From the NCBI GenBank assembly GCA_050633245.1, contig JBOEGD010000012.1, positions 64,001 through 128,000 on the forward strand: a stretch of DNA of 64,000 nucleotides. Direction: 5' to 3'. This document shows, piece after piece, positions 12,853 through 37,343 of the stretch. The stretch's first letter is position 1, and each line of letters opens with the position of its first letter. The notes beneath the pieces were generated by a model that was not told the origin of the DNA, searched no databases, and saw only the letters and a program-made list of their open reading frames with translations. Made by a program: the position numbers and the translations under genes. The stretch comes from Calditrichia bacterium. Lineage in GTDB: Bacteria > Calditrichota > Calditrichia > RBG-13-44-9 > J075.

Positions 12853-12872
12853 TTCCAGTTTCTTCCGTTATC

Positions 12873-13112: not shown

Positions 13113-13121
13113 TGAATTCTC

Positions 13122-13231: not shown

Positions 13232-13267
13232 AGCTGAGATCACCGCACTGAAAACCAAGGAGAAGAA

Positions 13268-13624
13268 ATGGGTAAAGAGTTTGGAGCGTACCTAAGAAAA
13301 TTAAGAGATGATCTGGGTATGAGCCTTAGACAAGTTCAACAAGCAGCAAAAATTTCTAATAGCTATCTGTCTCAGATTGAATCCGGCGAAAGGGGAATAC
13401 CTAATTTTAAGATTCTAAGTAGATTAGCAGAGGCCTATGGAGTACCTGTTGCACAATTAGCTGAGGCTGCTGAAAAGGCTGAAGCTGGAGATGCGCTTGG
13501 AGAACCAAGTTTATCGAAAGATGCAGCTTTTGTGTCCAGAGGATACGAGAAACTATCAGATGATAACAAAAAAATGTTGAGTGAGTTTCTACAACACCTT
13601 ATTAACAAGGAAAAGAAAGAATAA
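13268..13624 (+). CDS. XRE-family repressor (ImmR/CI-like)
   Basis: FGAYLRKLRDDLGMSLRQV...SYLSQIESGER HTH; directly upstream of ImmA-like gene. Confidence 0.9.
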   Translation: MGKEFGAYLRKLRDDLGMSLRQVQQAAKISNSYLSQIESGERGIPNFKILSRLAEAYGVPVAQLAEAAEKAEAGDALGEPSLSKDAAFVSRGYEKLSDDNKKMLSEFLQHLINKEKKE

Positions 13625-13628
13625 GGAT

Positions 13629-14588: not shown

Positions 14589-14596
14589 GGCACTCT

Positions 14597-21188: not shown

Positions 21189-23273
21189 TTACAGAAGAAA
21201 GAACGACGGCCAGTTAATCATCTCCGGTTGGTCCAAAATGAACTGCATCCAGAATAAAAATCGCGCCGACGTTTTATTCAGTCCCAACTTCGGAGGCGAA
21301 ACCATCTTGCTGTTATTCGCATAATTCGTGTCAAGCGTAAGCACATGATCCGGATCTACAGCCGCCTCAACCAGTTTAGCTTCTTTGAGGTATTTGAATT
21401 TCTTCCAGCGCGATTTGCCATCCCATTGTTCACGCAGCGTTTCACCATCAGAGAACGTCACTTCAACCTCAACCGGATGCGTAAAATCGCCCAGACGTCT
21501 CACCCGAACTTCTGAAAAGTGCAGTTTCTTCGTCAACGAGTCGGGTTCAAAAGGCGTCTCCAGCGAATCCAGCGTGCTGTCGATATCGGATAAGCTCTCG
21601 TCAAAGTCGAAGCCTTTTGGAGCCTTATACTTTTTTGTTCTGACATAGCTAATAGAGTAGTCTACTGTTTTTTCGCTAAAGAGAGCCTGTTGGAAAAAGC
21701 TGTCCAGATTTTTACCAGAGACCTCATTTGCAATATCCATAAAGTCCTGGGTGGTCGGATGTTTAAATCGCCAGCGCGTAACATAGGTGTTGATAATCTT
21801 GCGCATGGTCTCTTTGCCAACGATGTTGCGAAGTGTTGAAAGCAGCGTTCCCGAACGTGAATAGCTGGAAATACCGTAGCTCGCATTTGAATAATACTCC
21901 CACGCATTTTGTACAACGGGGTCGGCATCGGGAAAAATTCGGTAGATCATACGATGCATGTCTTCAGTATTCAGCTTGATGCCGAAAACATCGAGCATAT
22001 CGCCAGTCGGGCCATATTCAGCGTTCATTACCTCAATTTCGGTGAAGGTGTTTATTCCTTCATCCAGCCAAGCTTCTTCAAATTCATTTGAAGCCAACAG
22101 GTGATACCAGAAGTTATGACCAAATTCATGGATAATCACGTGCTCCAAAGAGCGAAACCCTTCCATCAAACCGTAGCTGGTTCCGGCAGTGATAAGCGTA
22201 GGGTATTCCATACCGCCGGTGGCTTCTGCACCGCGTCGCGGATCGATTACAGTTAAGTTGGGAAATGGATAATCTCCATACCAATCCTGAAAATAGCGAA
22301 CGGCCACTTTGGCGGCTTCTACATGACGCGGCCCCTGGGCGACGTGATCTTTCTGAACCAGTGCGCGAATATCAACATCCTGCTCACGGCCACGAAACTC
22401 CACATAATCCGAGCTTGCAGTCCAGGCAAAGTCATGCACATCCTCAGCGTGATAATAATGTGTTGCCGTCCCATCGTCATTTTGGTTAACTTCGACTTCC
22501 AGTCCGGTAGAACCAACAATGCGATCATCCGGCAGCGTAATCCAAACGTTGTAGACGCCGTAGTCGGCAAAGAATTCAGAATTCAAGTGAAATTGATGAC
22601 TATTCCATCCTTCATCAGTGAATTTGGCGACTTTGGGAAACCACTGTCCAGCAAACACATAATCTTTCATTGCACCGGTTCGCGCGACGGCCGGCTCCGG
22701 TAGAAGAGCTGTAAAGTCTACGAACAACGTTACAGTTTCTCCCGGCTCAACAGCTTCGGGAAGCGGCAGACGGAAATAACTCTTATCATATTCATCCGGG
22801 GTATCTGGCTGCATAAACTCCATACCAGCAGTAATATCGATCCCCGGCACGCGGCGCGGTTCTTCCTTACGCTGGATATTTAAATAGCGTTTTGCGTCAG
22901 CCGTCGATTCTTTAGGAAGCATGACAATCTGTTTGATTTCACTAAATCCCCAGCCATCTTCTTCACCCATCTTGCTATTACGGTGAACACCACCGGATTC
23001 CAGCATGAATGTCGAACGGTTATTTCGGAAGCCATTCATATAAAGGTGAAAACGCATTTCGGAAACAGGTTCATCAGATGCATTCTTCCAATGAATGAGC
23101 TGTCGACCTCGTAGTGAGTGTGTTTCCACATCTAAATCGACACGAATATCGTAATTTGCTATGCGTGGACTTAGCGGTGTTTCAAAAAGAGTTGGTTGCG
23201 CAAAAGAGAGGCTGCTGCAAAGAAAAAAGGCAACGCCAAGCCAGCGTAGATAAAGAACGTGATTTTCAAACAT
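21189..23273 (-). CDS. Secreted M1-family metallo-aminopeptidase
   Basis: GGMEYP, HEFGH-x18-E (WLDEG), signal peptide. Confidence 0.92.
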   Translation of the reverse strand: MFENHVLYLRWLGVAFFLCSSLSFAQPTLFETPLSPRIANYDIRVDLDVETHSLRGRQLIHWKNASDEPVSEMRFHLYMNGFRNNRSTFMLESGGVHRNSKMGEEDGWGFSEIKQIVMLPKESTADAKRYLNIQRKEEPRRVPGIDITAGMEFMQPDTPDEYDKSYFRLPLPEAVEPGETVTLFVDFTALLPEPAVARTGAMKDYVFAGQWFPKVAKFTDEGWNSHQFHLNSEFFADYGVYNVWITLPDDRIVGSTGLEVEVNQNDDGTATHYYHAEDVHDFAWTASSDYVEFRGREQDVDIRALVQKDHVAQGPRHVEAAKVAVRYFQDWYGDYPFPNLTVIDPRRGAEATGGMEYPTLITAGTSYGLMEGFRSLEHVIIHEFGHNFWYHLLASNEFEEAWLDEGINTFTEIEVMNAEYGPTGDMLDVFGIKLNTEDMHRMIYRIFPDADPVVQNAWEYYSNASYGISSYSRSGTLLSTLRNIVGKETMRKIINTYVTRWRFKHPTTQDFMDIANEVSGKNLDSFFQQALFSEKTVDYSISYVRTKKYKAPKGFDFDESLSDIDSTLDSLETPFEPDSLTKKLHFSEVRVRRLGDFTHPVEVEVTFSDGETLREQWDGKSRWKKFKYLKEAKLVEAAVDPDHVLTLDTNYANNSKMVSPPKLGLNKTSARFLFWMQFILDQPEMINWPSFFLL

Positions 23274-23517: not shown

Positions 23518-24171
23518 ATGACTCCTGCTCAAGAGCAAATGCCCCTTGTTGATTTGTTAAAACTATGCTGCGACAGAAGCTCACCAAAACACGGTGAAGC
23601 CTGGCTTGAGTTTATGGAGCGCTATCGCCCGGTAATGGAAAACGCCATTTTAAAGCGCTGTAGATCCTGGGACGCACGTCAGCGACTTCCGCTTCAGCTT
23701 AAAGATGTGGCAAACGACATTCTCGGACGCGTTTTAGAACAACTGGTCGATCGCGATTTTAAAACATTGAGCACCTTTCGAAACCCGGACAGTCAGGCTA
23801 TGTTTTGTGCCTATCTCATACAAATCTCCAGAAATGCCGCTTCGGCCTATTTAAAGAAATGGAAATTCGATCGTATGACCGGAGAAGATCCGATAGATTG
23901 GCAGTCAGACAAACATGCTCAGGATGACAGCTTAGCATGGGAAATTTATGAATCACGCGTCTCTGAACTACGCGACACACGCAAGCGGCGCAGGCCGGGT
24001 AACCTCGAGCGCGATATCCATATTTTTCTGCTCTACCGATGGTCTGATTTCGACCAGAGTATGATTCTCTCTCATCCCTATCTGCGAAACATTGGTCATC
24101 GCGTTGTCGACCTCGTTGCAAATCGCATGGGCGAAAAAATTAAGCAGGGATACCAAACGCCTGATGCTTAG
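23518..24171 (+). CDS. ECF-like sigma factor (region 2 clear, region 4 divergent)
   Basis: AWLEFMERYRP, DILGRVLEQL, FCAYLIQISRNAASAYLKK, RDIHIFLLY; first gene of the CHAT locus. Confidence 0.72.
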   Translation: MTPAQEQMPLVDLLKLCCDRSSPKHGEAWLEFMERYRPVMENAILKRCRSWDARQRLPLQLKDVANDILGRVLEQLVDRDFKTLSTFRNPDSQAMFCAYLIQISRNAASAYLKKWKFDRMTGEDPIDWQSDKHAQDDSLAWEIYESRVSELRDTRKRRRPGNLERDIHIFLLYRWSDFDQSMILSHPYLRNIGHRVVDLVANRMGEKIKQGYQTPDA

Positions 24172-24183
24172 GACAGATATAGA

Positions 24184-24588
24184 ATGAATGTTTCACCGCT
24201 GCAAACAGGAATGCTTCTTGCACTTTTAGAGCTGCAACGCAATGGCAAAGTCATTTCAGTAGACTTGTCAGATGCAGAGCAGGCCGTACTGCACAATCTT
24301 GAAGAAGGTTTTGCGTTTCTTGCTGATCAATCCGATACGGTCAGCTTAAAGTCACTGCTAGACGGCATCACCTGTAGCGAAGTTCCCTGCCTTCGTCGCA
24401 AAAGTGAGTTATTGGCAATGATGTTTTTGATCGACTCGAGCACTGACGGTGAGGCAACAGAGCAAAATCGACAAGATTTTTTTCGCATGATGAATTCGTG
24501 CTATACTTGTTTTCAGGAATTCAGCGATATTATGCGCGGTTATTATCAGATAATCGATGCGCATGCCGAACAACAAAACGCAAAATAA
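24184..24588 (+). CDS. Soluble anti-sigma-like protein (degenerate zf-HC2/ZAS)
   Basis: DGEAT...FFRMMNSCYTCFQEF resembles HxxxCxxC without the His; directly after the sigma gene. Confidence 0.55.
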   Translation: MNVSPLQTGMLLALLELQRNGKVISVDLSDAEQAVLHNLEEGFAFLADQSDTVSLKSLLDGITCSEVPCLRRKSELLAMMFLIDSSTDGEATEQNRQDFFRMMNSCYTCFQEFSDIMRGYYQIIDAHAEQQNAK

Positions 24589-24595
24589 CTTTTTT

Positions 24596-24628
24596 GAGAG
24601 ATTTTTAGCGCATTCTTCATCTTTATAT
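24596..24628 (+). promoter_or_regulatory. Candidate ECF-type promoter, copy 2
   Basis: GAGAGA-N18-TCTTTATAT(ACGAACA) upstream of the membrane anti-sigma. Confidence 0.35.
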
Positions 24629-24677
24629 ACGAACAGCTCAAAAACTGGCATGGGATCCCCACTGCCGGAAAGATTGA

Positions 24678-25880
24678 ATGAATGCGAAAGAGAAGAAAAT
24701 GGACTCACTTTTTAAGCTCAGTCATAGCGAATTAGCAGATTATATTCGCAGCACCGCCAGTGCACCTTTATTAAAGCGTGTAGAAAACCTGCGCGGCGAA
24801 GATGCAAGTTATCGTCTATTATTCGACATGATAGATAACGTGCGCTATGGCGCCGGTATTCCGTCAGCGCCTCGGACAGAGCAAAGACCCATCCCTTTGG
24901 AACCCATTAACATAGACCACAACACACTGGAAGGCTTGCTAAGCGGCAACGCCACGGTGGCTGACGGACGAAGTTTTCTAAGTCAGTTGATGTCTTCCCG
25001 CCGCTACTACCAGCAGTTTTTTCTGCACCTGTTGGAAATGGACCCACAGCGTCAATCAGAGATCATCAGCGATCTCGGTGAAGTTGTGCAGGTGCGAAGC
25101 AATCGCGAACTGGTAGAAGACATTATTGGCATTGTTCCTAAAACCATGAAGTCGCCCGGTGGCTTTACGCTACCAGATTTCCTTAACAACTTTGGCTGGC
25201 GTTTCGCTACGGCAATCCCTGCATTACTGGTTTTGCTGCTGGTCGGTAATGCGTTTATGGCAGGCCCGCTCGGTAAATTTGATGTTCGGGAGAATGCTCC
25301 AAATGGCTATCAGCACAATCTGGTTAATGCGACGCGCGGGGCAACACAGTCGCATTTCGATGTCAACAACCTGCTGCGTCAGGTTCAATCTCTCAATGGC
25401 CTTCTGGTAACCAGCTCAAGCGATTATGATACCAGTGAGTACGATGAAGCAATAGCAATGCTTAGCAAGGGCAAAGGTATCGCCCAGAAACTTCGCAGGG
25501 AATCGATTGCAGCAATGGAAGACAGCCTATCTCACCAACCGGATTCCAACCTGGCAAATCTATTAATGGAAGCGCGTAAGGTAACGCAAGACTATCACTT
25601 CTATCTCGGAATATATCATCTGGTTCGCAATAAGCCCGGCGATGCGCAAAAAGCCGTCGTGCTGTTAACCGATGCAAAACTTCTCGCCGAAGGCTATGCA
25701 CTTGACACAGCCCATAGAGAGAGCTATTATTTAGGATTGGCAAATGCATTCGCCGACGATAAAGCAACCGCTCTAAAACTGCTGCGCGCGATACCGGAGA
25801 ACTCACCCTATTCTGTACGTGCCAACACCGCTATCGAAAGACTTGGACTCAACTTTTTTGAGCGCATGATAGACTGGTAA
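24678..25880 (+). CDS. Transmembrane anti-sigma-like protein with extracytoplasmic TPR-like domain
   Basis: Cytoplasmic ASD-like N-terminus, single TM at about aa 176-195, ATRG motif at aa 218-221, YHFYLG/YYLGLA TPR-like helices; alternative start 24699. Confidence 0.7.
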   Translation: MNAKEKKMDSLFKLSHSELADYIRSTASAPLLKRVENLRGEDASYRLLFDMIDNVRYGAGIPSAPRTEQRPIPLEPINIDHNTLEGLLSGNATVADGRSFLSQLMSSRRYYQQFFLHLLEMDPQRQSEIISDLGEVVQVRSNRELVEDIIGIVPKTMKSPGGFTLPDFLNNFGWRFATAIPALLVLLLVGNAFMAGPLGKFDVRENAPNGYQHNLVNATRGATQSHFDVNNLLRQVQSLNGLLVTSSSDYDTSEYDEAIAMLSKGKGIAQKLRRESIAAMEDSLSHQPDSNLANLLMEARKVTQDYHFYLGIYHLVRNKPGDAQKAVVLLTDAKLLAEGYALDTAHRESYYLGLANAFADDKATALKLLRAIPENSPYSVRANTAIERLGLNFFERMIDW

Positions 25881-25914
25881 GCGCGTGGACAGAATTGTTT
25901 TGCATTTTGGTTTT

Positions 25915-25980
25915 GTCACCTCGAGCGCAGTCGAGAGGCTGGTAAGCTCTCAATAGGGCTTCGACTCCGCTAAGCCTGAC
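25915..25980. repeat. REP-like palindromic element
   Basis: GTCACCTCGAGCGCAGTCGAGAGG...CTTCGACTCCGCTAAGCCTGAC; related to 58327-58380. Confidence 0.65.
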
Positions 25981-26093
25981 CAAATTAGTCGCAAGGTACT
26001 GTCAAATAATACTGTCTTAGCGCTTAAACAAAACAGCTTTAAACTATACATATTCCAACTCAATGCTTTCGCCTGCATCTGGAGGGAAATCGT

Positions 26094-27878
26094 ATGCACA
26101 TTTCCAAAACGGGTCGTCACTTACCCATCCGCCCGGAATTGTTGAGCGTCGTCTGTGGTATTCTATGGGCTGCAGCTCTACTTCTGCTCAGCACGTCCAC
26201 AATGCTGACTGCACCCGGTAATTCTACCTTACTGTTTGATTTTGTTCAATCCGCGCTTCCCGGATATTCCCTAACCGCTATTGGCATTCTTATTGGCGTT
26301 TTTTGGGCCTTTGCCGCAGGATATATTTTTGGCTTTCTGATCGGTTTTGTCTACAAAATGCTCATGCGCCGCAAATTGCGCAATGTCAGCTCATCATTGT
26401 TAAAAATCAATCCGTCTGAGCAACCCTTTGTTATTCAGGAAGGCATCGGAGAGAAACCGTATACCATTGCCTTTGTTGCAAATCCATTCCTGCTTGTTCC
26501 GCAAGAAGACGGAACGAATGCCGTTCAGATTGATCCAATCATGGCTAAAAAGGAACTATTCCATCAGGTTGTGGTGCGCTGTTTACGCAGCTTCGCAAAC
26601 AACGGGCTACTGCGTCAGCCGGAAATTTTTAATCGCCTGAGGCTGGTTATCTATTTCGATCCAAATATCGAGCTGGATATTTTGCGCAATCGCCCCGTTA
26701 CATTAAACGCTGATGAAGCATTATGTATCGGATACGATCCGTCAATTATTGGCCCGATTATAGATACCGAGAAAATCTACTCGTATGTAAAAGAAAGAAT
26801 TACCTCATACTGCGACGTTGTTTATATGATTTCAGCAAGCGATATCTATACGCGTTCATCTGCACGTTTTACTCAGGAAGAGACTATGTCTGAGGGTGTA
26901 AATTACAATTTTACATTTACCCCGGACACTTCAGTTTTCGAAACGCGGCGGCATGCCTGGTGTGCAAAAGTTCCCGGTGTTGTGGCATTATCTGCCTGGG
27001 ACGATCGTTTAAAAACACCAGTTCATGAATTTGCACATGCAATGTCTTCCGTAGAAAACGGCGCAATTGACGATGAATATATCGATGATACTTTTGCCAG
27101 TCTTACCCACCGCATCAACAAGCAATATCGCGTAGGTTATATCTTAAATGATGCTGCAATTGAGCAGTTGAGAAAACATGCTCCGGCCATTGTTGGTACG
27201 TTAATGCCCTTAAAGGATCGTCCATTCGCTGATAGAATAGCGTTTCTGGATAAGCTTAAAGTCGTGCTATCAGAGGAAGAACTCAATCAGTATTTAGATG
27301 TCATCCTGGAGTATGCCTTCTTTCGTCCGGTATTTTTCCTTACCGAAACGTCTATCGCCAAAATTGTAAACGCTATTGATGTTGAAAGCGATAAAGACAA
27401 AGTACGCGCAGCCACCGTGCGCATGAAAGGCAAGCGCTTCTATTCACGTAGCTTGTTCTATCGCGAATTCGCCAAAGAAATTAGCAATCGGAATCTGTTT
27501 ATGCGTTATCGCTCGCTTGTAGCACGCTTTTCGCACTTTCAGAATTATCCGGTGCCGCATGTTTTTGCACATTACAAATTGGCCGGCAGCGAGATGAAGA
27601 CGTATTATTCAGATCGCAATCGCAGCGATAAAGAAATGTCATGGCGATCGTTTTCACCAGAGCGGAGCTCCACGCGGCTTTCCTGTATTATGGACATTGC
27701 TGTATACGGCTATCGTTTCGATAAATTGCTGTTCGATTGGATGTACGACCGCCTCTATGTGAAAATGAATCGACCGGCAACAGCCTGCAGCCATCCGGCA
27801 CCTCCCGGAAACGCGGCCGAAGATCGTACCCATACCAATATTCAGATCAATCTGCTAAATGAGGAGAATCGTTCATGA
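26094..27878 (+). CDS. Membrane-anchored zinc metalloprotease (M64-like) with holin-like N-terminal membrane domain
   Basis: N-terminal TM pair with LPGYS..IGI.IG..W.F..G...G..Y; HEFAH-x8-DDEY; downstream SCIM Met-turn-like motif; GGAGG RBS. Confidence 0.7.
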   Translation: MHISKTGRHLPIRPELLSVVCGILWAAALLLLSTSTMLTAPGNSTLLFDFVQSALPGYSLTAIGILIGVFWAFAAGYIFGFLIGFVYKMLMRRKLRNVSSSLLKINPSEQPFVIQEGIGEKPYTIAFVANPFLLVPQEDGTNAVQIDPIMAKKELFHQVVVRCLRSFANNGLLRQPEIFNRLRLVIYFDPNIELDILRNRPVTLNADEALCIGYDPSIIGPIIDTEKIYSYVKERITSYCDVVYMISASDIYTRSSARFTQEETMSEGVNYNFTFTPDTSVFETRRHAWCAKVPGVVALSAWDDRLKTPVHEFAHAMSSVENGAIDDEYIDDTFASLTHRINKQYRVGYILNDAAIEQLRKHAPAIVGTLMPLKDRPFADRIAFLDKLKVVLSEEELNQYLDVILEYAFFRPVFFLTETSIAKIVNAIDVESDKDKVRAATVRMKGKRFYSRSLFYREFAKEISNRNLFMRYRSLVARFSHFQNYPVPHVFAHYKLAGSEMKTYYSDRNRSDKEMSWRSFSPERSSTRLSCIMDIAVYGYRFDKLLFDWMYDRLYVKMNRPATACSHPAPPGNAAEDRTHTNIQINLLNEENRS

Positions 27879-28525
27879 CACCGTTTCATCCAAAATTCAG
27901 ACAGTTGTTATTGGCAGATAAAGATCATCAAAAAGCTGGATTAACCCCAAGCCTGCTGCACGAGTTCGAATGCCTTGGCGTTAAGCTCTCCTATATTCTG
28001 AACTACCCGCCAAACAATGCGCAGATCGAAGTTTACCTGTTAACCAATGATGGCTACAACAACATCAGTTATGTGCTACAGGGGAATAACGATTGGGGCA
28101 TCTTAAGTGACGTTCTTGGTGGAGTTATCGATCAGCCATTCCGCGGAGCACTCAGCTATCTTTCGCATATTGAAACACAGCTGCTCCAGTGGAATGATAT
28201 TGAGGGGGCACGCATATTCAAAGACCATCGCGCTCTCATCCTGCAGGAAACGAGTGTGAGTAGCCACCCAGTTGCCCTCGGAGATGGCCCGACACTGGAA
28301 GAGCTCCGAAGCGAGATTACATTTTTTCGCAACAACTTTCTGGTAAACTACGATACAGTGCATCAGCACTGGGTAGGCATACAGAAACGATCCGCAAACA
28401 AGCGTTATCTAAGCACGTCTACCGGCCTAAATCTATTTGGATTTTTCATTTCGCTATTTTTAACATTCTTTCCAAGACGAGAGCAAGAAATCAGAGTTCA
28501 GTACCCTTCAGGTGAGGCAAAATAA
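27875..28525 (+). CDS. Hypothetical protein with helical repeat module and C-terminal hydrophobic anchor
   Basis: ATGA-coupled to the upstream gene; shares a Y/F-x-L-T...F...F...Y/H...IL module with 26094; LNLFGFFISLFLTFFPRR tail. Confidence 0.75.
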   Translation: MTPFHPKFRQLLLADKDHQKAGLTPSLLHEFECLGVKLSYILNYPPNNAQIEVYLLTNDGYNNISYVLQGNNDWGILSDVLGGVIDQPFRGALSYLSHIETQLLQWNDIEGARIFKDHRALILQETSVSSHPVALGDGPTLEELRSEITFFRNNFLVNYDTVHQHWVGIQKRSANKRYLSTSTGLNLFGFFISLFLTFFPRREQEIRVQYPSGEAK

Positions 28526-31451
28526 ATTGCAGCGCGATCTCCTACATTGTCTGCTGGTATTGCTGCTCGGTTTGATGCTGACATCTTGCGAGCAACAAAC
28601 TGCCGCCGAGGCGATAAAGCTTGAACCACTATCCCCGGAGGAAGAATACCGTTCCCTGTTATCGGCGTCGGACGCTACCTTTGAGCGTGCAGAAAAAGTA
28701 GTTACGGAAAATCCACTGTATTTCAGACAGCGCGTTTATTATCAGCTTCTCGACAAAGCGCTTTCCATGAAAATAACTGGGGATGATAGTCTCGCAGAGG
28801 CAACATTTTCTGAGGCCAGGCAGATGGCGCAAATCTTCCAAAGCAAGCTGGATGATTCGTTTCTAATGGTACAGCACCGCTTTTCGACAACACTCAGCAA
28901 CAAAGATATTCATAAAAAGCTACAGGTCGATTCATTATATAAGCTGGGCAACGACTCGCTTCGCAAGAAGAACTATGCGGCGGCAGATAAATTCTTTGAG
29001 AATTCGATTCGCATCGCTAAAGAGATTGGCGACCAGCGTCGGGTTGTAGATAATCACTTGCGTCAGCAGTTTATGCTCGATCGTCAAAAACGGCTGCGAG
29101 AATCGATCTCGCGAGGAAAAGAAGCGCTGAAGCTCGCCAACACCATTGGGTATCACTATCGCGCAGCTTGGATATTGCACTACATGGCTCTTTCCAGTGA
29201 ACTGCTTGGCGAATATGCTGCAGCAGTCGACTACTCCAGCCGCGCCGCGAAAGCGGCTGGAATAACCAAAGACTATCGCTGCCTGTCCGATACTCAATGG
29301 CTTGAAGGCATAGCGCTGTATCGGTTGGGACGCTTTGCAGAGTCTGTTGAGACACTCAATCATGCACTCGAAGCCAGCATTCAACGAGAAAGCCTTTCTA
29401 TACAGGCCAAGATCCACAATTCACTGGCGAACTCGCATAAAAGCCTGGGCAATTATTCTAACGCCGAAGAAAACTACCTGGACTCCTGGAAACTATTCGA
29501 AAAGCTGGATCGTCAAAAAGACATTGCAATTACGCAGGCAAATCTTGCTGACCTCTATCGCGTAATGGGTGCGCAGGATGAAGCACTTAAAATGTTTAAG
29601 ATGGCCTATTTGTATTACGAAGCCAATGAGCGGCATTACGACCGTATCGCGATTGTGAAGCGCATGGGCGATACCTATCGTAATCAGGGCAATTTGAAAA
29701 TGGCCCGGACAAGTGGGCGCACTGCTCTGGACGAGATTCTTGTGCAGGAGAAAAGTGGCTCTGATGCCTACGCCCTGCTAAAACCGGAGGCTTACCTCAG
29801 CCTTGGCGATGTTGAACGTGATTTCGACAATACATCGGCAGCAATGCCCCTTTACCAGGAGGCATTGACCGCTTTTAAACTATTGGACAATCGGTTTGGG
29901 ATTCTGGAGGGTTATCTAAAAATAGGTGATTTGCATTTTCGCGACGGTAATAACTTCAAGGCAGAATCGTCATTAAAGAAGGCACGGGGAATTGCCGCCA
30001 GCATCCGGCACCCACGGGCACTGGCACTGGCCGATTTTTCTTTAGGCAAACTATGGACGCAGAAAAAGGAGTTCAGTAAGGCAGAAAAGGCTCTGGAAAA
30101 TGCGATTGTCGGCGTGGAGCAAACCCGCAGCAACATCGAAGATGAGAATCGCCTCAACGAGCTTCAAATTAGCTACTTCGCTACGATGCAGGACATATAT
30201 GATGAGATGGTTTATCTGCAGCTACTCATGGAACAGCCCAAAGAAGCATTCTACTATTCTGAGCAGGCGCGGGCACGCTCTCTGCGAGATCTCTTGCAAA
30301 GCGAAGGCGGTTCTGCGCCAATCGGCCTTGTGAAGCCTCAAGACCTATTAGCAGCAAACACGACCCTGTTAGAATACAAATTTGTAAAAGATGATCTTAT
30401 CTGTTTTGTGGTACAAGAGAACAATTTCGCCGCCGTAAAGCTGCCCCGGCAGCGTGAACAAACCGAAGCAGCAATTCGCGGTTTTTTGACCGCAATTGGT
30501 GCCAATCACTATCAGGATTTTCTCGAAAAAACCAAGCAAGATGGTGCAGGCTACTACAACTCAATGAACCTCTCGGCGAAACAGCTATGGCAGCTGCTGT
30601 TGAGTCCGCTTGGCAAGAAACCTTTGCAGGCAGAGCACCTGATCATCGTTCCCGATGGTCTACTTCACTACCTGCCCTTTGCGGCACTGGTAGACAGCAG
30701 TAATCAATTTCTGATAGAAAAACGCATTGTTTCCTATTTGCCCGCGGCTTCTTTATTGGACAGACAAATTGGCGCGCAACCCGCTGCAGACTGGCAGCTT
30801 CTGGCTGCTGCAACGCCGGAAATGGGATTACCATTTACCCGGCAGGAAGTTGAAGCGATCGCCGGATATTTCCAAAAGAGCACTCTACTCCACTCTATGA
30901 ATGAGCTTAGCGAAGAACAACTATTGAATCATTTCAACAAACAATTCGAGGTTATTCATCTCGCCTGTCACGCAGAAATAGATGAACGCACACCGCGCTA
31001 CTCAAGTATTTTCGTGGGCCCAACCAGCGGGATTGAAAAAACAAGCCTGCTGCGCGGCAGCGAGATTAGTGACAATCGCGACGACAACAATCTAATGGCT
31101 CATGAGCTTTATCGGCTAGACTTTAGCAATACCAAGCTCATCGGGCTCTCGGCATGCAAGAGCGCCACCGGTCGCTACGTCAGCGGCGAAGGAATGATTG
31201 GTTTTATTCATCCACTGATGTCGGCAGGCGCGGAGTCTGTCCTTGCGACGTTGTGGGAGATTAGCGATGAACATACGCCCAAACTCATGCAGCTTTTCTA
31301 CGAAAACTGGATAGAGAAAAAGATGGGACGCGCCGAAGCACTCGCAAGCGCACAACGGCAGATAATTCAGGCAACAAGAGAGAATTCAAATATAAATTAT
31401 GCGCACCCTCAACTTTGGGCAGCATTTACGCTGACCGGCGCACATAACTAG
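28512..31451 (+). CDS. Lipoprotein TPR-CHAT (caspase-like) protease
   Basis: Lipobox LTSC; long TPR array; IIVPDGLLHYLPFAAL, IHLACHA (His), LSACKS (Cys), TLWEISD, HPQLWAAF. Confidence 0.93.
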   Translation: MRQNKLQRDLLHCLLVLLLGLMLTSCEQQTAAEAIKLEPLSPEEEYRSLLSASDATFERAEKVVTENPLYFRQRVYYQLLDKALSMKITGDDSLAEATFSEARQMAQIFQSKLDDSFLMVQHRFSTTLSNKDIHKKLQVDSLYKLGNDSLRKKNYAAADKFFENSIRIAKEIGDQRRVVDNHLRQQFMLDRQKRLRESISRGKEALKLANTIGYHYRAAWILHYMALSSELLGEYAAAVDYSSRAAKAAGITKDYRCLSDTQWLEGIALYRLGRFAESVETLNHALEASIQRESLSIQAKIHNSLANSHKSLGNYSNAEENYLDSWKLFEKLDRQKDIAITQANLADLYRVMGAQDEALKMFKMAYLYYEANERHYDRIAIVKRMGDTYRNQGNLKMARTSGRTALDEILVQEKSGSDAYALLKPEAYLSLGDVERDFDNTSAAMPLYQEALTAFKLLDNRFGILEGYLKIGDLHFRDGNNFKAESSLKKARGIAASIRHPRALALADFSLGKLWTQKKEFSKAEKALENAIVGVEQTRSNIEDENRLNELQISYFATMQDIYDEMVYLQLLMEQPKEAFYYSEQARARSLRDLLQSEGGSAPIGLVKPQDLLAANTTLLEYKFVKDDLICFVVQENNFAAVKLPRQREQTEAAIRGFLTAIGANHYQDFLEKTKQDGAGYYNSMNLSAKQLWQLLLSPLGKKPLQAEHLIIVPDGLLHYLPFAALVDSSNQFLIEKRIVSYLPAASLLDRQIGAQPAADWQLLAAATPEMGLPFTRQEVEAIAGYFQKSTLLHSMNELSEEQLLNHFNKQFEVIHLACHAEIDERTPRYSSIFVGPTSGIEKTSLLRGSEISDNRDDNNLMAHELYRLDFSNTKLIGLSACKSATGRYVSGEGMIGFIHPLMSAGAESVLATLWEISDEHTPKLMQLFYENWIEKKMGRAEALASAQRQIIQATRENSNINYAHPQLWAAFTLTGAHN

Positions 31452-31492
31452 GGTGCAGAACAGCCCTTCAACAGCAACAGGAGGAACGAGCA

Positions 31493-31879
31493 ATGAATGA
31501 AGATCTTTTATTGCTGGCCGACACCACAACCAACCATGAAGGTGAAGAGCCACCGCCAACCGACATGTTTTATACACGTGCAGCTCTTCAGCGCTCCAGC
31601 GCTTTAGATGCCATGCGTCTTGGCGTCTCCATCGGCATTGCCTGGATGGTATTATTTTTACTTATTATTCCCGGTGCTCTCATGTCCGGAGGCAATGCCT
31701 CACTCTTGGTCGTGCAGGCATTTTACCCGGGATTTACGGCCGGAGCAAGCGGGATTCTATTTGGCCTGGCACTTAGCTTTGTATATGGCACCATCGGTGG
31801 GATTGCCATCGGTTCGCTATATAATTCGCTCGTCCAGCGTGAAGTTTTAGCTGGTGAGAATTACGAAACATATGGTTAG
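31493..31879 (+). CDS. Small membrane protein of a holin-like family, with acidic Pro-rich N-terminus
   Basis: Two TMs around FYPGF...GILFGL...VYG.IGG..IGSLYN; similar to the N-terminus of 26094; AGGAGG RBS. Confidence 0.78.
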   Translation: MNEDLLLLADTTTNHEGEEPPPTDMFYTRAALQRSSALDAMRLGVSIGIAWMVLFLLIIPGALMSGGNASLLVVQAFYPGFTAGASGILFGLALSFVYGTIGGIAIGSLYNSLVQREVLAGENYETYG

Positions 31880-31904
31880 TCAAATCAATTGATTGGAGTA
31901 AAAA

Positions 31905-32042
31905 ATGCCTCTAAATTATGATAGCGAATCAAAGCCAAAACGCGGTGGAAAAATCAAGCCGCCAGATGATCAGGAAGATCGGCCAACACGCCGCGGAAAT
32001 GATGAAGACAAGGATGAAGACCAAGATAAGGATCAGGAATAG
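31905..32042 (+). CDS. Unannotated 45-aa acidic peptide MPLNYDSESKPKRGGKIKPPDDQEDRPTRRGNDEDKDEDQDKDQE
   Basis: GGAG RBS 6 nt upstream, clean ORF filling the intergenic gap, hairpin right after the stop. Confidence 0.72.
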   Translation: MPLNYDSESKPKRGGKIKPPDDQEDRPTRRGNDEDKDEDQDKDQE

Positions 32043-32055
32043 ATAAGAATTCGTC

Positions 32056-32083
32056 GGCTGCCGAAATTTCGGCAGCCTGTTTT
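32056..32083 (+). terminator. Hairpin/terminator after the peptide gene
   Basis: Perfect palindrome GGCTGCCGAAATTTCGGCAGCC followed by TGTTTT. Confidence 0.7.
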
Positions 32084-32097
32084 ACCGGAGTTGGGAA

Positions 32098-35000
32098 ATG
32101 AGAGTCGTGCCTGGTTATATTTTGCTCTTTGCAATTTGCATTGCATTGATGCAGCCGCTGCATTCTCAGTCGGAAGCGGCTCAGAATCGCGATTACTATA
32201 GCGAACTGGCTAAGAAGCAGAACCAACTCCCGCGCAATCAACGCAACTACCTGCAAAAGATTGTTCAGAAGACGTCGAAAAATGACCATGCCTGGCTAAG
32301 CTTGTTGGATACGTATCTAATCGATAGCGAAATCGACGAGGCCGGAAGATTTTTTCGCCCACTGTTAAAAAAGGATGCCACCCGACCAGCGGCTCAGCGT
32401 ATTATGGCGCATCTTTTCCATATTCAAGGGGAAAACGACGAAGCACTAAAGCTGTTTCAACAAAGTTTGCAAACGTCGCCGACATCGCAAACCGTTAAGG
32501 AATTCGCACAATTTCTACGCAATACCAATCGCTCACCTGAGACAGATTTTTTACCGGATACGTTAAAGTCAGGCCCGTTACGAGAGCAGCTCGACGTCAA
32601 TTATGCTCTTTACACGTTCTCATCGAGAAATTCGCAGACTCCCCTCAAAGTTTATCTCCGCTCTCAGCATCCCACGGAGTCGGCACTCTTGCAAGCAGCT
32701 GAAGCAGCCTATCGCCTTCGCCAGTTCGCAAATGGCGACACGCTGCTCAGTAAAAGCCGCAGACAAGCCAAAAAAAATCACAACATCGATTGTCTTACCC
32801 AATCATTTATTCTCGAAAGTATTTGGCAGCAAGAGTTCGGGCTTTCTCATCAGCTCGCCATGTTGGATTCCGCCGAGTATTATGCTTCCCGCATAAATAA
32901 TTGGCGACTCTTGCAGAAAGTCTATGGTGAACGCGGGCTACTTCATTACGCCGACGACGATTATGCTGCCGCCATCAATCAGCTGCGCAAAGCGATTGAC
33001 ATTGCAGATAAGATGCAGCTAAATAATCATCTCGCCAAATGGCTTAGTCCGTACGGGAAAGCGTTATTTTATCTGGAATCTTATCAGGAAGCGCTGCAAG
33101 TTCACGAACGTGCCGAAGAATTGGCAACACGACTGAATCGCAAACGCCTTGCGCTTAACAGCCGAATAAACAAGGGCGACCTGCTGGCATACTTTTCACG
33201 TTACTACCTCGCAGAGCAGGAATTCTACAGCGCATATCGCGAAGCAGCCGAGCTGGGCTTAACGACTATTATGCGTCGCGCATATCCGCGAATTGGCGAC
33301 ATGCTTTTAGAGAGTAAACAGTTTGCATCCGCTCGCGAAATCTACCGCAATCATCTGGCAACACTTCATAAACGAGGTAAGCAAGACCAGCTACCTTATT
33401 GGCTGGGTCGAATTGCCGAAAGCTACGAACATGAACAAAAACTCGACTCTGCAACAGTTATCTATGAACAGGCTTTTCAACAAGCTCGAACGGTTAATGC
33501 CCCTTATTATATGAGCTCATACATGAGGCGCCTTGGCGAACTCGACAGGCGTAATGGACGTCCGATTCAGGCCCAACAACGCTTTCAAACCAGCCTTGAT
33601 ATAGCACATAGTTCTACAGACAGTAGCCTTATCGTCGATATCCACCGCTCTATGGGTGACTTGCATTTTCAACTAGCGGAGTACAACAAAGCCATTTCGG
33701 CATACCAGTCCGGCGTAGCAATGTATGAACGCATCCGTAACCGGCTTGTTTTAGAAGATCTTAAAATTGGCTATGCAACTCAGGGATATTCGCTCCATCA
33801 TCAGCTGGCCGGGTGCTTCAAAAAGCTGTATGCCGAAACGAATAATCCTGGCCTGCTGGACAGCCTGCTTTTTCATATGGATCTCGCCCGCGGTCGAACC
33901 CTAAAGGAGTTGCGTCTTAGCGGAGAGAGTAGCAACACAGGTCTTAGCTATTCTAAATCAATGGATATTCAACAACGTTTCAGCTATCGCAAGCGACGCT
34001 GGCGAGCGCTGCAAACATCTCATCAGAATCCAACTGCGCAGATGAAGAGCGATTTACTTTCCGCACGCAATGCCCTGCTCACCGACAGGTTGCGGCATCA
34101 AACGGCGGGCTCCAAAAAAACGGACGCGCAGCCGCTCTCGCGTACGATACTTCAAACCAGGCTCAGGCAGATTGATCATACGGCATTGGCTTTTCACATC
34201 CAGGACAGCCTCTCCTTTACTCTTATAATAAGCCCCGATACGATACGTATCGTAAGTATGATCATCGACGAACAACAGCTGACAAAATCGATCAAGAAAC
34301 TCATTGCTCCCTTTCACAATCTAAGCAGCTTGGAAACTCACACGACTATTTATGAAGCGCAAGAGGCATTCAACCTGCATCAACAGCTTATTAAACCGCT
34401 GGAAACACACATACAGCTGGTAGAAAACATACTCATCATTCCAGACACACCTCTGCTTAACCTGCCGTTCGACTTACTTCTTCGAACACAACCACAACAA
34501 GAGCGTTATTTACCGACCGATTTCCCGGACTACACCGCACACTTACTCGTGCAGAAGCATTGTTTTACCATTATGCCAGATCTGCAGCTGCCAACCGCTT
34601 CCGAGCAAAGACATTCTGCAGATCCCGAGCTGCTCGTTATTGCAAATCCATTTGCTGAAGCTGAGTTTATGCCCGGATATTTTGAGCAGAATCAATTTCG
34701 AGCCGGCGGAATTTTTCTTCCTCTCCCATTTACGGAAGTGGAAGCTGCTGCCATAAAAGCACTTTATCCCAAAACGCAGGTTTTAAAGCGACGTCATGCC
34801 ACATCCAAGACGCTAAAATCGATAGCCTCGGATTACGATATAATTCACCTCGCAACGCATGCTTTTGCGGACTCAGCATTCGATATTTTTTCCGGGCTTG
34901 TTCTACACGCCTCGCAGGATTCACTGGACGACGGTTTTTTAATGGGTTATGAGATTGAACAACTTCACCTCAATTGTGAACTTGTAGCACTCAGTGCCTG

Positions 35001-35391
35001 TGAAACCGCGCTCGGGAAACAGGTAGCCGGAGAAGGCGTGCTTGGCCTGCCACGTCTTTTTCTTGCGGCGGGAGCAAAATCAGTGCTTCAAACCTGCTGG
35101 AAAGTTGATGATGGCTTTACGTCAAAGTTAATGCCTGAGTTTTATAAACGCCTCCTTGTGGAAGGGAAAACGCGCCCCGAGGCTCTTGCCGGTGCGAAAC
35201 GCTTTTTTCTTACACCACCAGTTACCAAACAGCAGACCTATTATCAACATCCGCTCTATTGGGCCTCCTTTAATCTCTTTGGTTCTCCGGGCCTGCCGGT
35301 ACAGTCACAAAAGAGTAGATGGTCCCTCCTTTTCCTCCTTCTTGCCGGAGTGTTTCTCTATGTGCTCTATCGTATAAAAACACGTCGCTAA
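32098..35391 (+). CDS. Exported TPR-CHAT protease with C-terminal membrane anchor
   Basis: Signal peptide; TPRs; LIIPDTPLLNLPFDLL, IHLATHA (His), LSACET (Cys), HPLYWASF; tail WSLLFLLLAGVFLYVLYRIKTRR. Confidence 0.93.
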   Translation: MRVVPGYILLFAICIALMQPLHSQSEAAQNRDYYSELAKKQNQLPRNQRNYLQKIVQKTSKNDHAWLSLLDTYLIDSEIDEAGRFFRPLLKKDATRPAAQRIMAHLFHIQGENDEALKLFQQSLQTSPTSQTVKEFAQFLRNTNRSPETDFLPDTLKSGPLREQLDVNYALYTFSSRNSQTPLKVYLRSQHPTESALLQAAEAAYRLRQFANGDTLLSKSRRQAKKNHNIDCLTQSFILESIWQQEFGLSHQLAMLDSAEYYASRINNWRLLQKVYGERGLLHYADDDYAAAINQLRKAIDIADKMQLNNHLAKWLSPYGKALFYLESYQEALQVHERAEELATRLNRKRLALNSRINKGDLLAYFSRYYLAEQEFYSAYREAAELGLTTIMRRAYPRIGDMLLESKQFASAREIYRNHLATLHKRGKQDQLPYWLGRIAESYEHEQKLDSATVIYEQAFQQARTVNAPYYMSSYMRRLGELDRRNGRPIQAQQRFQTSLDIAHSSTDSSLIVDIHRSMGDLHFQLAEYNKAISAYQSGVAMYERIRNRLVLEDLKIGYATQGYSLHHQLAGCFKKLYAETNNPGLLDSLLFHMDLARGRTLKELRLSGESSNTGLSYSKSMDIQQRFSYRKRRWRALQTSHQNPTAQMKSDLLSARNALLTDRLRHQTAGSKKTDAQPLSRTILQTRLRQIDHTALAFHIQDSLSFTLIISPDTIRIVSMIIDEQQLTKSIKKLIAPFHNLSSLETHTTIYEAQEAFNLHQQLIKPLETHIQLVENILIIPDTPLLNLPFDLLLRTQPQQERYLPTDFPDYTAHLLVQKHCFTIMPDLQLPTASEQRHSADPELLVIANPFAEAEFMPGYFEQNQFRAGGIFLPLPFTEVEAAAIKALYPKTQVLKRRHATSKTLKSIASDYDIIHLATHAFADSAFDIFSGLVLHASQDSLDDGFLMGYEIEQLHLNCELVALSACETALGKQVAGEGVLGLPRLFLAAGAKSVLQTCWKVDDGFTSKLMPEFYKRLLVEGKTRPEALAGAKRFFLTPPVTKQQTYYQHPLYWASFNLFGSPGLPVQSQKSRWSLLFLLLAGVFLYVLYRIKTRR

Positions 35392-35513: not shown

Positions 35514-37343
35514 ATGAAAGCGCCAAAACCGACATTTTCGGCCTCGTCGAACGCTACAACAGATGCCCTGCCGAAACGTCAGCAAATAGACGAACGCTAC
35601 AAGTGGAATTTGCAGCATATATTCGACTCAAATGAGGATTGGGAGACTGAGCTCAATGAGATAGAAGAGGGACTTTCCAAATTCGACAGCTTTGCAGGGA
35701 CTTTGGGACAATCTGCTGAGTCACTTTTTCAGTGTTTGAGATATCAGCACAACCTGGAAGAACGCTTTGGTCGACTATTTCTTTATTCCGGTCTTAGCAA
35801 TGACCAGGACACCTCCGAATCTCTTTATCAGGATTACCGCGGACAGGCATCTGCACTGATGGCAAAAATTAATCAGAGAACTTCCTTTATTCAGCCTGAG
35901 ATTCTTGCACTTGGTAAGAGAAAAATTGATTCGTTTTTACAGCAGCATCAGAGCCTACAGGAATTTCAGCACCTATTGGAAGATATTTTTCGTACTGTCG
36001 CTCATGTGCTTCCGCCGGAACAGGAGCAGTTGCTTGCACTTACCGGTGAACTGGCTCAGGGAGCATCGAATATTTTTTCCATGTTCAATAATGCAGACAT
36101 CCAATTTTCATCGATTCTCGATGAAAATGAACGAGAAGTTGAAGTCACCAAAGCCAGACATCAGCGATTTATGGAATCGAAAAATCGCCGAGTCCGTGAA
36201 GATTCCTATCGCGCTCTATATGGTGCCTATCATAAATGGACCAACACGCTGGCGGCAACGCTTTCAACGGCTGTTAAAAGAAATCTGTTTTATGCAAAGG
36301 CGCGTAGATATAACACGGCACTGGAAGCTGCACTGGATAGTGAGAACATTCCGGTTGGGGTTTATGATAATGTGATTAATACAATTAATCAGAATCTAAA
36401 CCCACTACAGAACTATATGAGTCAGCGTGCAAAGATACTGGGGTTGGAGACGGTACGTCCATGGGATCTGACTGTACCGCTTGTTACAGAGGTGGATTTT
36501 AATATTCCGTATGATGATGCAGCAGGAATCTTACGTGAGGCGCTTGCGCCACTCGGCGAAGACTATCTTTCTGCAATCGATAAAGCATTTGAGGATGGCT
36601 GGGTCGACGTTTATGAAAATCGTGGAAAGCGTTCAGGTGCCTACTCCTGGTCGACGTATGGAGCTCATCCGTATATACTGATGAATTACAACGCTACGTT
36701 GAACAATTTGTTTACTCTGGCTCATGAGTTGGGACATGCACTTCACTCCTACTACACTCATCAATCACAGCCAAATCATTACAGCCACTACACAATTTTT
36801 GTGGCTGAGGTAGCATCTACGCTGAATGAAGCATTACTTATGGATTATTTACTTAAGCGCGAAAGCGGTGAAAGACGCCGTTATTTGATTAATGAATACA
36901 TCGATCAGATTCGTGGTACCGTTTATAATCAAGCATTGTTTGCCGAGCTGGAACGCGACATTCACACTCATGCAGAAAGTGGGCAGACACTTACCGGAGA
37001 GTATCTGAATGGCCTTACAGCTTCACTTTATAATAAATATTTAGGAGAGCACTTTCAAATCGATGACCTCTACCAGATAAACTGGTGCCGTATTCCACAT
37101 TTTTATTACAACTTTTACGTCTATAAATATGCCACAGGCTTTTCTGCTGCCACGGCACTATCACGTAAAATACTAGATGGCGATACTTCCGCTCGAGAGG
37201 CATATCTATCGTTTTTATCACGCGGAAATTCAGACTATTCGATCAATTTACTGAAGGATGCCGGAGTTAATATGCTTTCTGCGGAGCCAATTGAAGCGAC
37301 AACAACCTTGATGATGAATTTATTGAAACAGTTTTCAGAATAA
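35514..37343 (+). CDS. pepF: Oligoendopeptidase F (M3B)
   Basis: YKWNL, GKRSGAYS, HPYILMNY, TLAHELGHALHS, FVAEVAS, IPHFYYNFYVYKYATG. Confidence 0.96.
   Translation: MKAPKPTFSASSNATTDALPKRQQIDERYKWNLQHIFDSNEDWETELNEIEEGLSKFDSFAGTLGQSAESLFQCLRYQHNLEERFGRLFLYSGLSNDQDTSESLYQDYRGQASALMAKINQRTSFIQPEILALGKRKIDSFLQQHQSLQEFQHLLEDIFRTVAHVLPPEQEQLLALTGELAQGASNIFSMFNNADIQFSSILDENEREVEVTKARHQRFMESKNRRVREDSYRALYGAYHKWTNTLAATLSTAVKRNLFYAKARRYNTALEAALDSENIPVGVYDNVINTINQNLNPLQNYMSQRAKILGLETVRPWDLTVPLVTEVDFNIPYDDAAGILREALAPLGEDYLSAIDKAFEDGWVDVYENRGKRSGAYSWSTYGAHPYILMNYNATLNNLFTLAHELGHALHSYYTHQSQPNHYSHYTIFVAEVASTLNEALLMDYLLKRESGERRRYLINEYIDQIRGTVYNQALFAELERDIHTHAESGQTLTGEYLNGLTASLYNKYLGEHFQIDDLYQINWCRIPHFYYNFYVYKYATGFSAATALSRKILDGDTSAREAYLSFLSRGNSDYSINLLKDAGVNMLSAEPIEATTTLMMNLLKQFSE

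Follow-up and report, generated by a model that had tools for sequence, protein, structure and literature searches.

A conserved sigma, anti-sigma and CHAT protease cassette of Calditrichota and KSB1 as a candidate split form of the DdvS/DdvA switch

In the RseA/DegS/RseP pathway a single-pass anti-sigma factor is cut twice, first outside the membrane and then inside it, and the extracytoplasmic function (ECF) sigma factor sigmaE is thereby released. Here we describe a gene cassette of a Calditrichia bacterium that may work along similar lines with a CHAT protease. It lies at positions 23518-35391 of the window, which is the whole stretch of 64,000 nucleotides that was analysed (contig JBOEGD010000012.1, positions 64,001 to 128,000), and it comprises a divergent ECF-type sigma factor (g1), a soluble and a membrane anti-sigma-like protein (g2 and g3), an M64-like metallopeptidase (g4), a tail-anchored protein of no recognised family (g5), a TPR-CHAT lipoprotein (g6) and a two-helix membrane protein (g7), followed by a second TPR-CHAT gene (g8). 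Its closest described counterpart is the DdvS/DdvA pair of Myxococcus xanthus, which likewise couples an ECF sigma and its single-pass anti-sigma, there of the zinc-finger kind, to an extracytoplasmic TPR-CHAT with an intact His-Cys dyad (PMC11506125; PMC6061681). In the part of PMC11506125 available to us, DdvA is presented as a zinc-binding anti-sigma (ZAS) protein with a periplasmic TPR-CHAT, for which a site-1 self-cleavage of the extracytoplasmic linker, ahead of RseP, is proposed; according to the same part, the trigger is not known, self-cleavage could not be demonstrated, and DdvA-like proteins occur in Myxococcota and one Comamonas only. We see about an even chance that g1-g7, passed on vertically in Calditrichota and KSB1, are a regulatory cassette that acts as a split form of the protease-gated ECF sigma switch of the DdvS/DdvA type.

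Several differences set the locus apart from DdvS/DdvA. The CHAT domain is found in a separate lipoprotein (g6) or in a separately anchored protein (g8) and not in the anti-sigma ectodomain, so that the fused arrangement of DdvA is missing, and the ectodomain of g3 has only a short TPR-like part. The cassette adds a soluble anti-sigma paralogue, an M64-like peptidase, g5 and g7, and it is not adjoined by genes of a cyclic oligonucleotide-based antiphage signalling system (CBASS) or of CRISPR, as PADLOC returned no CBASS/CRISPR-Cas island of the kind linked to DdvA in the cassette and its flanks. Compared with RseA/DegS/RseP, the proposed site-1 protease would be a CHAT lipoprotein instead of a PDZ serine protease, and the operon would encode its own dedicated, predicted cytoplasmic metallopeptidase. 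The latter has in common with the M64 peptidases BF3526, BACOVA_00663 and the immunoglobulin A (IgA) protease of Thomasclavelia ramosa the fold of residues ~105-560 and a metal site of the HExxH...DEY type. The solved M64 enzymes are secreted, whereas g4 has a two-helix anchor, a helical insert (~350-480) and a predicted cytoplasmic location.

Three further systems tie an ECF sigma factor to a protease of this kind. In the neighbourhood of ECF54 of Actinobacteria (Huang et al. 2015, via the PMC7826278 supplement), an ECF sigma stands in a TPR-CHAT context, described by bioinformatics only; as far as the accessible part of that supplement goes, no anti-sigma can be recognised for ECF54, which is partnered by a CarboxypepD_reg-like protein and a subtilase and belongs to another phylum, and no M64 peptidase or two-helix proteins are reported there for the ECF groups covered. 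The main text of PMC7826278 is silent on CHAT. In type III-E Craspase (Csx29, Csx30, RpoE; PMC10028731), a TPR-CHAT protease cleaves an inhibitor-like protein, this cleavage being coupled to an ECF sigma, and Csx29 chains are in fact the best PDB matches of our CHAT profile (E 4e-9). Craspase, however, is portrayed in the accessible part of that article as cytoplasmic, RNA-guided and bound to Cas7-11, whereas the CHATs here are predicted to be exported and have no adjoining cas genes, and the NCBIfam Csx29 model gave 38.3 bits against a cut-off of 300. In the EACC2-caspase/ECF/DUF1822 neighbourhoods (Kaur et al. 2021, PMC8195603) a caspase-type protease is predicted to be coupled to a dedicated ECF sigma; there, in contrast, EACC2 and caspase reside on one multidomain protein with a DUF1822 TPR partner, and the accessible part of the article describes no zinc-finger anti-sigma, M64 or two-helix proteins. 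No description of the g1-g7 gene set was found in the literature, although the supplementary files, only partly covered, could hold one. The statement of an earlier note on this DNA that this is not a described system stands, in other words, for the gene set and not for the principle, which has been published for DdvA/DdvS (PMC11506125) and in the ECF54 context (PMC7826278 supplement).

Conservation of the g1-g7 cassette

What the analysis establishes is which parts the locus has, where they are predicted to lie relative to the membrane, and that they stay linked. A collection-wide locus scan with the g4 alignment yielded 62 loci, 61 of which have an M64-type open reading frame (ORF) and were scored by hidden Markov models of seven parts. 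The order sigma, anti-sigma, M64, g5, CHAT and two-helix gene was found again in dozens of species-level genomes of Calditrichota and KSB1. Both a sigma gene upstream and a CHAT gene downstream are present at 32 of the 61 M64 loci; the contig ends before the sigma at six loci that have the CHAT, before the CHAT at three that have the sigma, and on both sides at another three, and the sigma is absent with the contig ending before the CHAT at three more. In two loci, L038 and L062, the sigma is present and the CHAT is not at the expected place, L062 having one upstream. The last 12, with room on both sides, were scored as lacking both genes. None of these 12 comes from a metagenome-assembled genome (MAG) labelled Calditrichota: 11 are short, anchor-less M64-like genes labelled as other phyla, and the twelfth (L076, KSB1) carries a CHAT just beyond the scoring distance window. 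MAGs labelled Cytophagia or Deferribacteres (G087, G089) share their GTDB phylum with the KSB1 genome G086, and the g4 type was found in 33 of 151 sampled genomes of that phylum (31 of 149 without two unpublished genomes). A small two-helix gene of the g7 type follows the CHAT in 30 loci, and a g5 homologue follows the M64 gene in many cassettes.

Closer to the window, a g1 query matches 17 of 41 related genomes, including 14 of the 15 of the same family, and a g1 profile matches 29 of the 86 genomes of the phylum. By tblastn and ORF mapping, g1-g7 are found in the same order in four other genera, with an M1 peptidase gene upstream in two of them and an M3 peptidase gene directly after g7 in one. 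The conserved flanks and the occurrence in nearly every genome of the family indicate vertical inheritance rather than a mobile defence island. The M1 and M3 genes were also considered as cassette members and rejected, as they flank the cassette in close relatives only. The second CHAT gene, g8, is missing from orthologous cassettes, and in L017/L027 and L029 the M3 gene directly follows the g7 homologue; because of this absence and of its location after a terminator-like hairpin, g8 is a local, lineage-specific addition outside the conserved cassette. The earlier note had counted nine co-oriented genes in the locus and expected them to co-occur elsewhere. Eight long co-oriented ORFs do lie on the plus strand within the interval and their overlaps are real (4 nt between g4 and g5, 14 nt between g5 and g6, with a spacing of 12 nt between g1 and g2), and the g1-g7 order does recur in Calditrichota and KSB1; the ninth, a 45-residue ORF taken for a peptide gene, has no conserved counterpart in related loci, and neither it nor g8 recurs with the others.

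Two contigs showed other arrangements. At positions 1-1031 of a Calditrichaceae contig (L029), a C-terminal CHAT fragment of 309 residues lies directly upstream of the M64 gene, in place of the sigma and anti-sigma genes. On contig 54 of G003 (L013/L020), three sigma genes and two g2-g3 pairs stand in tandem before a single M64-g5-CHAT-two-helix set, an arrangement in which a single protease set may serve several sigma/anti-sigma inputs or outputs.

The sigma factor and its anti-sigma-like partners

The first gene of the cassette escapes the standard family models: no Pfam or NCBIfam family reaches its cut-off with g1, no Pfam sigma family appears at E 0.1 or better, and the pairing of Sigma70_r2 with Sigma70_r4/r4_2 by which Pfam recognises ECF sigma factors is not seen in it. 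Its identity emerges from more sensitive comparisons. When a profile of 16 homologues was compared with the PDB, the first seven places were all taken by ECF sigma region 2 chains, with weak scores (E 0.006-0.06). The AlphaFold2 (AF2) model, with a predicted local distance difference test (pLDDT) score of 78, consists of two helical domains separated by a disordered linker (118-136), that is, sigma2 and sigma4 joined by a linker with neither sigma1.1 nor sigma3, and its best Foldseek matches are the ECF sigmas AlgU, SigH, sigmaE (1or7, prob 0.98), SigW, SigK and CnrH. These matches have E values of 0.03-0.3 and low whole-chain template modelling (TM) scores, as is expected because the two domains are flexibly linked; the region 2 chain of sigmaE, 4lup_C, aligns with a TM score of 0.67 and a root-mean-square deviation (rmsd) of 3.9. 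PHROG 1740, annotated as RNA polymerase sigma factor, matches g1 at E 1.4e-4. Among 20 homologues at the same cassette position, two pass the Pfam Sigma70_r2 cut-off, seven have sub-threshold r2/r4 matches and 11 have none, and in 19 of the 20 cassettes scanned the sigma gene is followed by one or more genes for single-pass membrane proteins of the zf-HC2 kind. Taken together, profile, fold, PHROG and homologue evidence identify g1 as a very divergent sigma factor of the ECF type, for which polymerase binding and promoter use are predicted. The family is small: a set of 1.84 billion representatives contains 108 clusters that match at E 1e-30 or better, and 526 when the limit is relaxed to 1e-10.

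The two proteins that follow are best understood through their relatives. Outside the bacterial family of our genome, the gene after the sigma encodes a one-helix protein of 314-402 residues with an [HC]xxxCxxC motif at residues ~30-55, often repeated near residue 100. In 20 such proteins at the g3 position of other lineages, zf-HC2 (PF13490) was found in 19 (18 above the cut-off and one at 21.7 bits, with one showing none); a single hydrophobic helix was seen in every one, and the C-terminal part matches TPR families in 20 of 20, weakly in L044. The window copy of g3 has by hydropathy a single hydrophobic helix, an N-terminal part that opens with an H-x2-L-V-x-Y-L-x-G pattern resembling the first helix of anti-sigma domains, and ~205 extracytoplasmic residues beyond the membrane with no CHAT domain; it contains no cysteine at all and has no Pfam hit. 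In the g2 family alignment a conserved Cys is followed ~38 residues on by H-L-N-x-C-x-x-C, which in the window copy corresponds to C64 (with an extra C69), M102 in the place of the His, C106 and C109; no hydrophobic helix was seen in g2 by hydropathy, and no family was found for it in Pfam, NCBIfam, PADLOC or PHROGs. Because of the zf-HC2 and TPR matches in the proteins of other lineages, we regard g3 as the local, degenerate version of an anti-sigma in which a ZAS domain, a transmembrane helix and a TPR part are combined, and g2 looks like a duplicate of the cytoplasmic part of such a protein.

Just beyond the membrane these proteins share an arginine motif. Across the broad anti-sigma set, D-x-R-[LP]-[SAP]-G-G-[YF] is found ~30 residues beyond the helix, and of the 41 aligned rows 28 hold Arg in its Arg column, two Leu and one Gln, the other 10 being gapped. 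These 10 rows belong to Calditrichia-type proteins, in most of which S-x-L-R-[GS] is found instead; g3 of the window reads A-T-R-G-A-T around R220, its TRG at 219-221 lying 25 residues beyond the helix. The two forms of the motif may be equivalent. The sigma fold of g1, the anti-sigma nature of both g2 and g3 and the TRG some 25 residues outside the membrane had all been proposed in the earlier note, and each is borne out: PDB profile, Foldseek, PHROG and cassette homologues all point to an ECF sigma, alignments and zf-HC2 matches place g2 and g3 in the zinc-finger anti-sigma lineage, and the TRG is part of a conserved Arg motif.

A tie between such a sigma/anti-sigma triad and an exported CHAT, also part of the earlier proposal, holds in orthologous loci and in paralogous ones. 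Our genome has 13 CHAT matches, seven of them full-length, and both of its strong g1-type genes lie within ~8 kb of a full-length one. The second of these genes (L014, contig 18, 58000-77999) is followed by genes for proteins of 139 and 342 residues and then by a TPR-CHAT of 1137 residues with a C-terminal helix; a 1104-residue Peptidase_C14 + DUF7379 protein is encoded convergently with this module. In L012 the triad is followed by a CHAT of the g8 type (leader and C-terminal helix), in L016 by a CHAT with TCAD7/DUF7363, and in L018 (G003, contig 92) by a g8-type CHAT, two Peptidase_C14 proteins and a CHAT-nSTAND1-Lcl_C protein, an arrangement that links the regulatory triad to conflict-system genes of the STAND type. 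In L009/L010 two genes of opposite orientation follow g3, and a Peptidase_C14-Lcl_C gene comes after them, ~2.6 kb from g3.

CHAT proteins with predicted export, the metallopeptidase and its companions

Both CHAT proteins combine TPR repeats with a domain well above the Pfam cut-off of 24 (PF12770; E 8.7e-62 and 209.6 bits for g6, E 4.4e-60 and 204 bits for g8), and both have the catalytic motifs of the CHAT peptidases, which belong to the caspase-like clan: HLACHA and LSAC in g6 (H820, C882) and HLATHA and LSAC in g8 (H921, C968). In all 14 CHAT domains aligned, from cassettes of two phyla, this His and Cys are unchanged. The N-terminus of g6 is a hydrophobic leader ending in LTSC, which resembles a lipobox, and g8 has an N-terminal leader together with a C-terminal hydrophobic helix (1075-1093), from which both are predicted to be exported; in the cassettes at large, 32 of 34 CHATs open with a hydrophobic segment, followed in 13 of those 32 by a small residue and a Cys in lipobox-like fashion. 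A CHAT-only profile compared with the PDB matched Csx29 (E 4e-9 to 1e-5), 8rot_B (991 residues, E 1.1e-4) and separase (E ~6e-3), whereas full-length g6 returned TPR proteins only; 8rot_B is probably DdvA, identified as such solely by a length matching that in the DdvA paper.

In g4 the HEFAH motif (H311, E312, H315) is invariant in 31 of 31 homologues, and D327, E328 and Y329 are invariant or nearly so. The AF2 model (pLDDT 87.8) has two long N-terminal helices (14-38 and 62-98) and a globular domain, for which the best Foldseek matches are the three M64 peptidases named above (E 6e-4 to 1e-2, prob 1.0); VIA gave Z 14.3 for 4df9_A (rmsd 3.8, 217 aligned) and Z 12.6 for 9qa6_A, with adamalysins next at Z 8-9. 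The M64 catalytic fold and HExxH metal site are thus both present, although no Pfam family, Peptidase_M64 (PF09471) included, matches at E 0.1 or better, and an Atlas search gave a lead of 0.88 only. The catalytic domain is most likely cytoplasmic, because of the positive charges read from the sequence before helix 1 and after helix 2 and because anchor and leader are both missing from distant standalone homologues in Acidobacteriota, Planctomycetota, Methylomirabilota and Actinomycetota. The small protein g7 is 37% identical to g4 residues 17-95 over 79 residues (BLASTP, E 2e-11). As for g5, its alignment is best conserved from the initiator Met on (MTPFHPKLRxALLxDPxHxxRGLTP), with a second conserved block and a hydrophobic tail, and no family was found for it in Pfam, NCBIfam, PADLOC or PHROGs; PADLOC BnzB (E 0.004) and Atlas PA28-like leads (0.85-0.87, all <0.9) were too weak to use. 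Judging from its conservation, the free g5 N-terminus may serve as a recognition element for the adjoining peptidase.

The catalytic dyads and apparent export of both CHATs, and the presence of a metalloprotease, are accordingly as first described. The same cannot be said of the label holin-like for the two-helix proteins, for which NCBIfam NF037947 (holin_4) gave 42.8 bits with the g4 N-terminal part and 37.2 bits with g7 against a cut-off of 70, with no PHROG at E 0.01 or better; nor of the role of envelope effector given to the membrane protease, since with its M64 domain predicted to be cytoplasmic g4 is no obvious effector there.

Table 1. Features of the locus and of the rest of the window (positions are those of the window)
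Feature	Positions	Strand	Description
g1	23518..24171	+	divergent ECF-type sigma factor, 217 aa
g2	24184..24588	+	soluble anti-sigma-like protein, 134 aa, zinc-finger-like motif at C-terminus
g3	24678..25880	+	membrane anti-sigma-like protein, 400 aa: cytoplasmic N-part, helix 176-194, R220, TPR-like C-part
g4	26094..27878	+	M64-like zinc metallopeptidase fused to two-helix membrane anchor, 594 aa
g5	27875..28525	+	216 aa, conserved N-terminus MTPFHPKLR..., hydrophobic C-tail, no recognisable family
g6	28512..31451	+	TPR-CHAT lipoprotein, predicted exported, 979 aa, catalytic H820/C882
g7	31493..31879	+	two-helix membrane protein, 128 aa, paralogue of the g4 anchor
Small charged ORF	31905..32042	+	45 aa, probably not a gene
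Terminator-like hairpin between g7 and g8	32056..32077	+	9-bp stem, 7 G-C pairs, then T-rich tail; consensus match only
g8	32098..35391	+	second TPR-CHAT, predicted exported, 1097 aa, leader and C-terminal membrane helix, H921/C968
M1 peptidase gene	21189-23273	-	upstream flank of the cassette
M3/PepF gene	35514-37343		downstream flank of the cassette
Repeat in g3-g4 gap	25886-26025		dispersed repeat
AAA_25/primase-like gene	10847-12676		low GC, adjoins the next stretch
capH/capP/recombinase stretch	13268-16198		helix-turn-helix protein, capP-like protein, large serine recombinase
PDC-M41A/B pair	59188-60845		adjacent gene pair, second is Pfam DUF5131

The gap between g3 and g4 holds a dispersed repeat of 35-160 nt, of which the genome has another 16 copies at 72-94% identity, in either orientation. 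Neither a tRNA nor an Rfam family match was found in it, its fold z-score is -1.37, and it is matched by short high-depth contigs from one public run. In the rest of the window, the PADLOC matches nearest to the cassette are a capH/capP-like pair ~9 kb upstream and a PDC-M41A/B pair ~24 kb downstream, neither of which adjoins it. The upstream pair (capH, E 3e-16; capP-like, E 1e-15), together with the recombinase and the primase-like gene beside it (10847-16198), probably forms an integrated element, and the downstream pair matches its PADLOC candidate at E 7e-120 and 2e-122. With a threshold of E 1e-5, PADLOC identified no cas genes among the 42 ORFs of the window, the sole exception being a response regulator with a CARF-like stretch that scored 27 bits.

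Proposed mechanism and competing readings

From the parts so identified we infer a chain of binding and cleavage events that would run from an envelope signal to a transcriptional output. At rest, the sigma factor g1 would be kept at the membrane by the cytoplasmic N-terminal part of g3 and perhaps also by its soluble paralogue g2. Outside the cytoplasmic membrane, the TPR array of the lipoprotein g6, possibly together with the TPR-like ectodomain of g3, would sense an envelope cue, and g6 would then cut the g3 linker just outside the membrane, at or near the conserved R220. The remaining stub would be removed by the site-2 protease of the genome, in which an RseP-type gene is present, by the membrane-tethered cytoplasmic g4, or by both, with g5 and g7 as possible partners or regulators of g4. 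Released g1 would transcribe its own operon and a regulon, and g8 would provide an extra, second protease input specific to its lineage. A variant of this scheme, a self-contained protease relay through three compartments that we consider unlikely, dispenses with a general site-2 protease: the CHAT would clip the anti-sigma or a periplasmic loop of the two-helix module of g4 and g7, the module would switch on cytoplasmic g4, and g4 would destroy the N-terminal domain of g3 as well as g2, with g5 as inhibitor or adaptor. If true, such a relay through the g4/g7 module would be a new way to carry a proteolytic signal across the inner membrane.

A number of observations speak against the switch as we propose it. 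No common promoter motif was found upstream of the sigma genes (k-mer enrichment and two-block motif counts in 53 upstream regions gave AT-rich noise or coding-derived words only), nor did a comparison of the intergenic regions of the window for common words reveal one, which leaves autoregulation by g1 unsupported; a sigma-70 consensus scan gave 25 sites against 21 expected. The zinc-finger cysteines of g3 are gone in the window and g2 has a Met for a His, so that either of the two may hold the sigma. MAFFT placed the D-x-R and S-x-L-R-[GS] motifs in different columns, and cleavage after Arg is not common to all known CHAT proteases. The cytoplasmic placement of g4 is itself deduced, the roles assigned to g4, g5 and g7 are guesses, and the CHAT could be an output of the sigma rather than its trigger.

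This last possibility is the core of the main rival, which is doubtful in our view and yet deserves serious consideration: an ordinary ECF sigma/anti-sigma pair whose anti-sigma is inactivated by zinc-thiol oxidation or by a generic site-1 protease, with the CHAT, the M64 peptidase and the small membrane proteins as outputs for envelope turnover or remodelling. The co-oriented genes, which follow the sigma in close succession like those of autoregulated ECF operons, would fit such a scheme, as would the position of the cassette among peptidase genes (M1, M3) in its own family and the zf-HC2 motif of the anti-sigmas, possibly of a redox-sensitive kind; redox sensitivity of zinc-binding anti-sigmas is in fact raised in the accessible part of PMC11506125. 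The promoter searches point neither way. However, the same triad is accompanied by different CHAT or caspase types in paralogous loci, which fits a specific regulatory partnership better, and proteases acting as outputs would leave the conserved Arg motif outside the membrane to be explained.

Weaker than this is a role in anti-phage defence or programmed death, as the earlier note had envisaged, in which the CHAT would unleash the tethered metalloprotease and the two-helix proteins. CHAT and caspase proteases are indeed at work in known systems, namely Craspase, the type III-B SAVED-CHAT cascade and the conflict systems covered by the accessible part of Kaur et al. 2021 (PMC8195603), and the triads in L016 and L018 stand beside TCAD7, nSTAND1 and Peptidase_C14 genes typical of conflict systems; the holin_4 matches, weak as they are, could be read in the same sense. 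Nonetheless, PADLOC returned nothing for the eight proteins at E below 1e-3 save a 17-bit TPR match, the holin_4 scores are far below cut-off with no PHROG holin hit, no lysin gene adjoins the cassette, and its immediate neighbours are housekeeping genes, peptidases among them, that are conserved in relatives. Nor is the distribution of the cassette patchy, as that of a defence island would be: 14 of 15 family genomes have it, between conserved flanks. We therefore judge this role distinctly improbable. That the genes are unrelated and adjacent by chance seems barely conceivable, with gene order conserved in 32 loci of two phyla and several genes overlapping or abutting.

If the cassette is a split switch of the DdvS/DdvA type, it would offer an experimental advantage. 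DdvA, the only studied CHAT-linked anti-sigma according to the accessible literature, is protease and substrate in one chain, whereas g6 and g3, its presumed substrate, are encoded apart and the latter has a conserved candidate site, so that the notion of a CHAT as site-1 protease of an ECF switch becomes testable with two proteins. The cassette also adds an undescribed and very divergent lineage of ECF-type sigma factors, and a membrane-tethered, apparently cytoplasmic branch of M64-like peptidases, and it is common in Calditrichota and KSB1, phyla with almost no experimental genetics.

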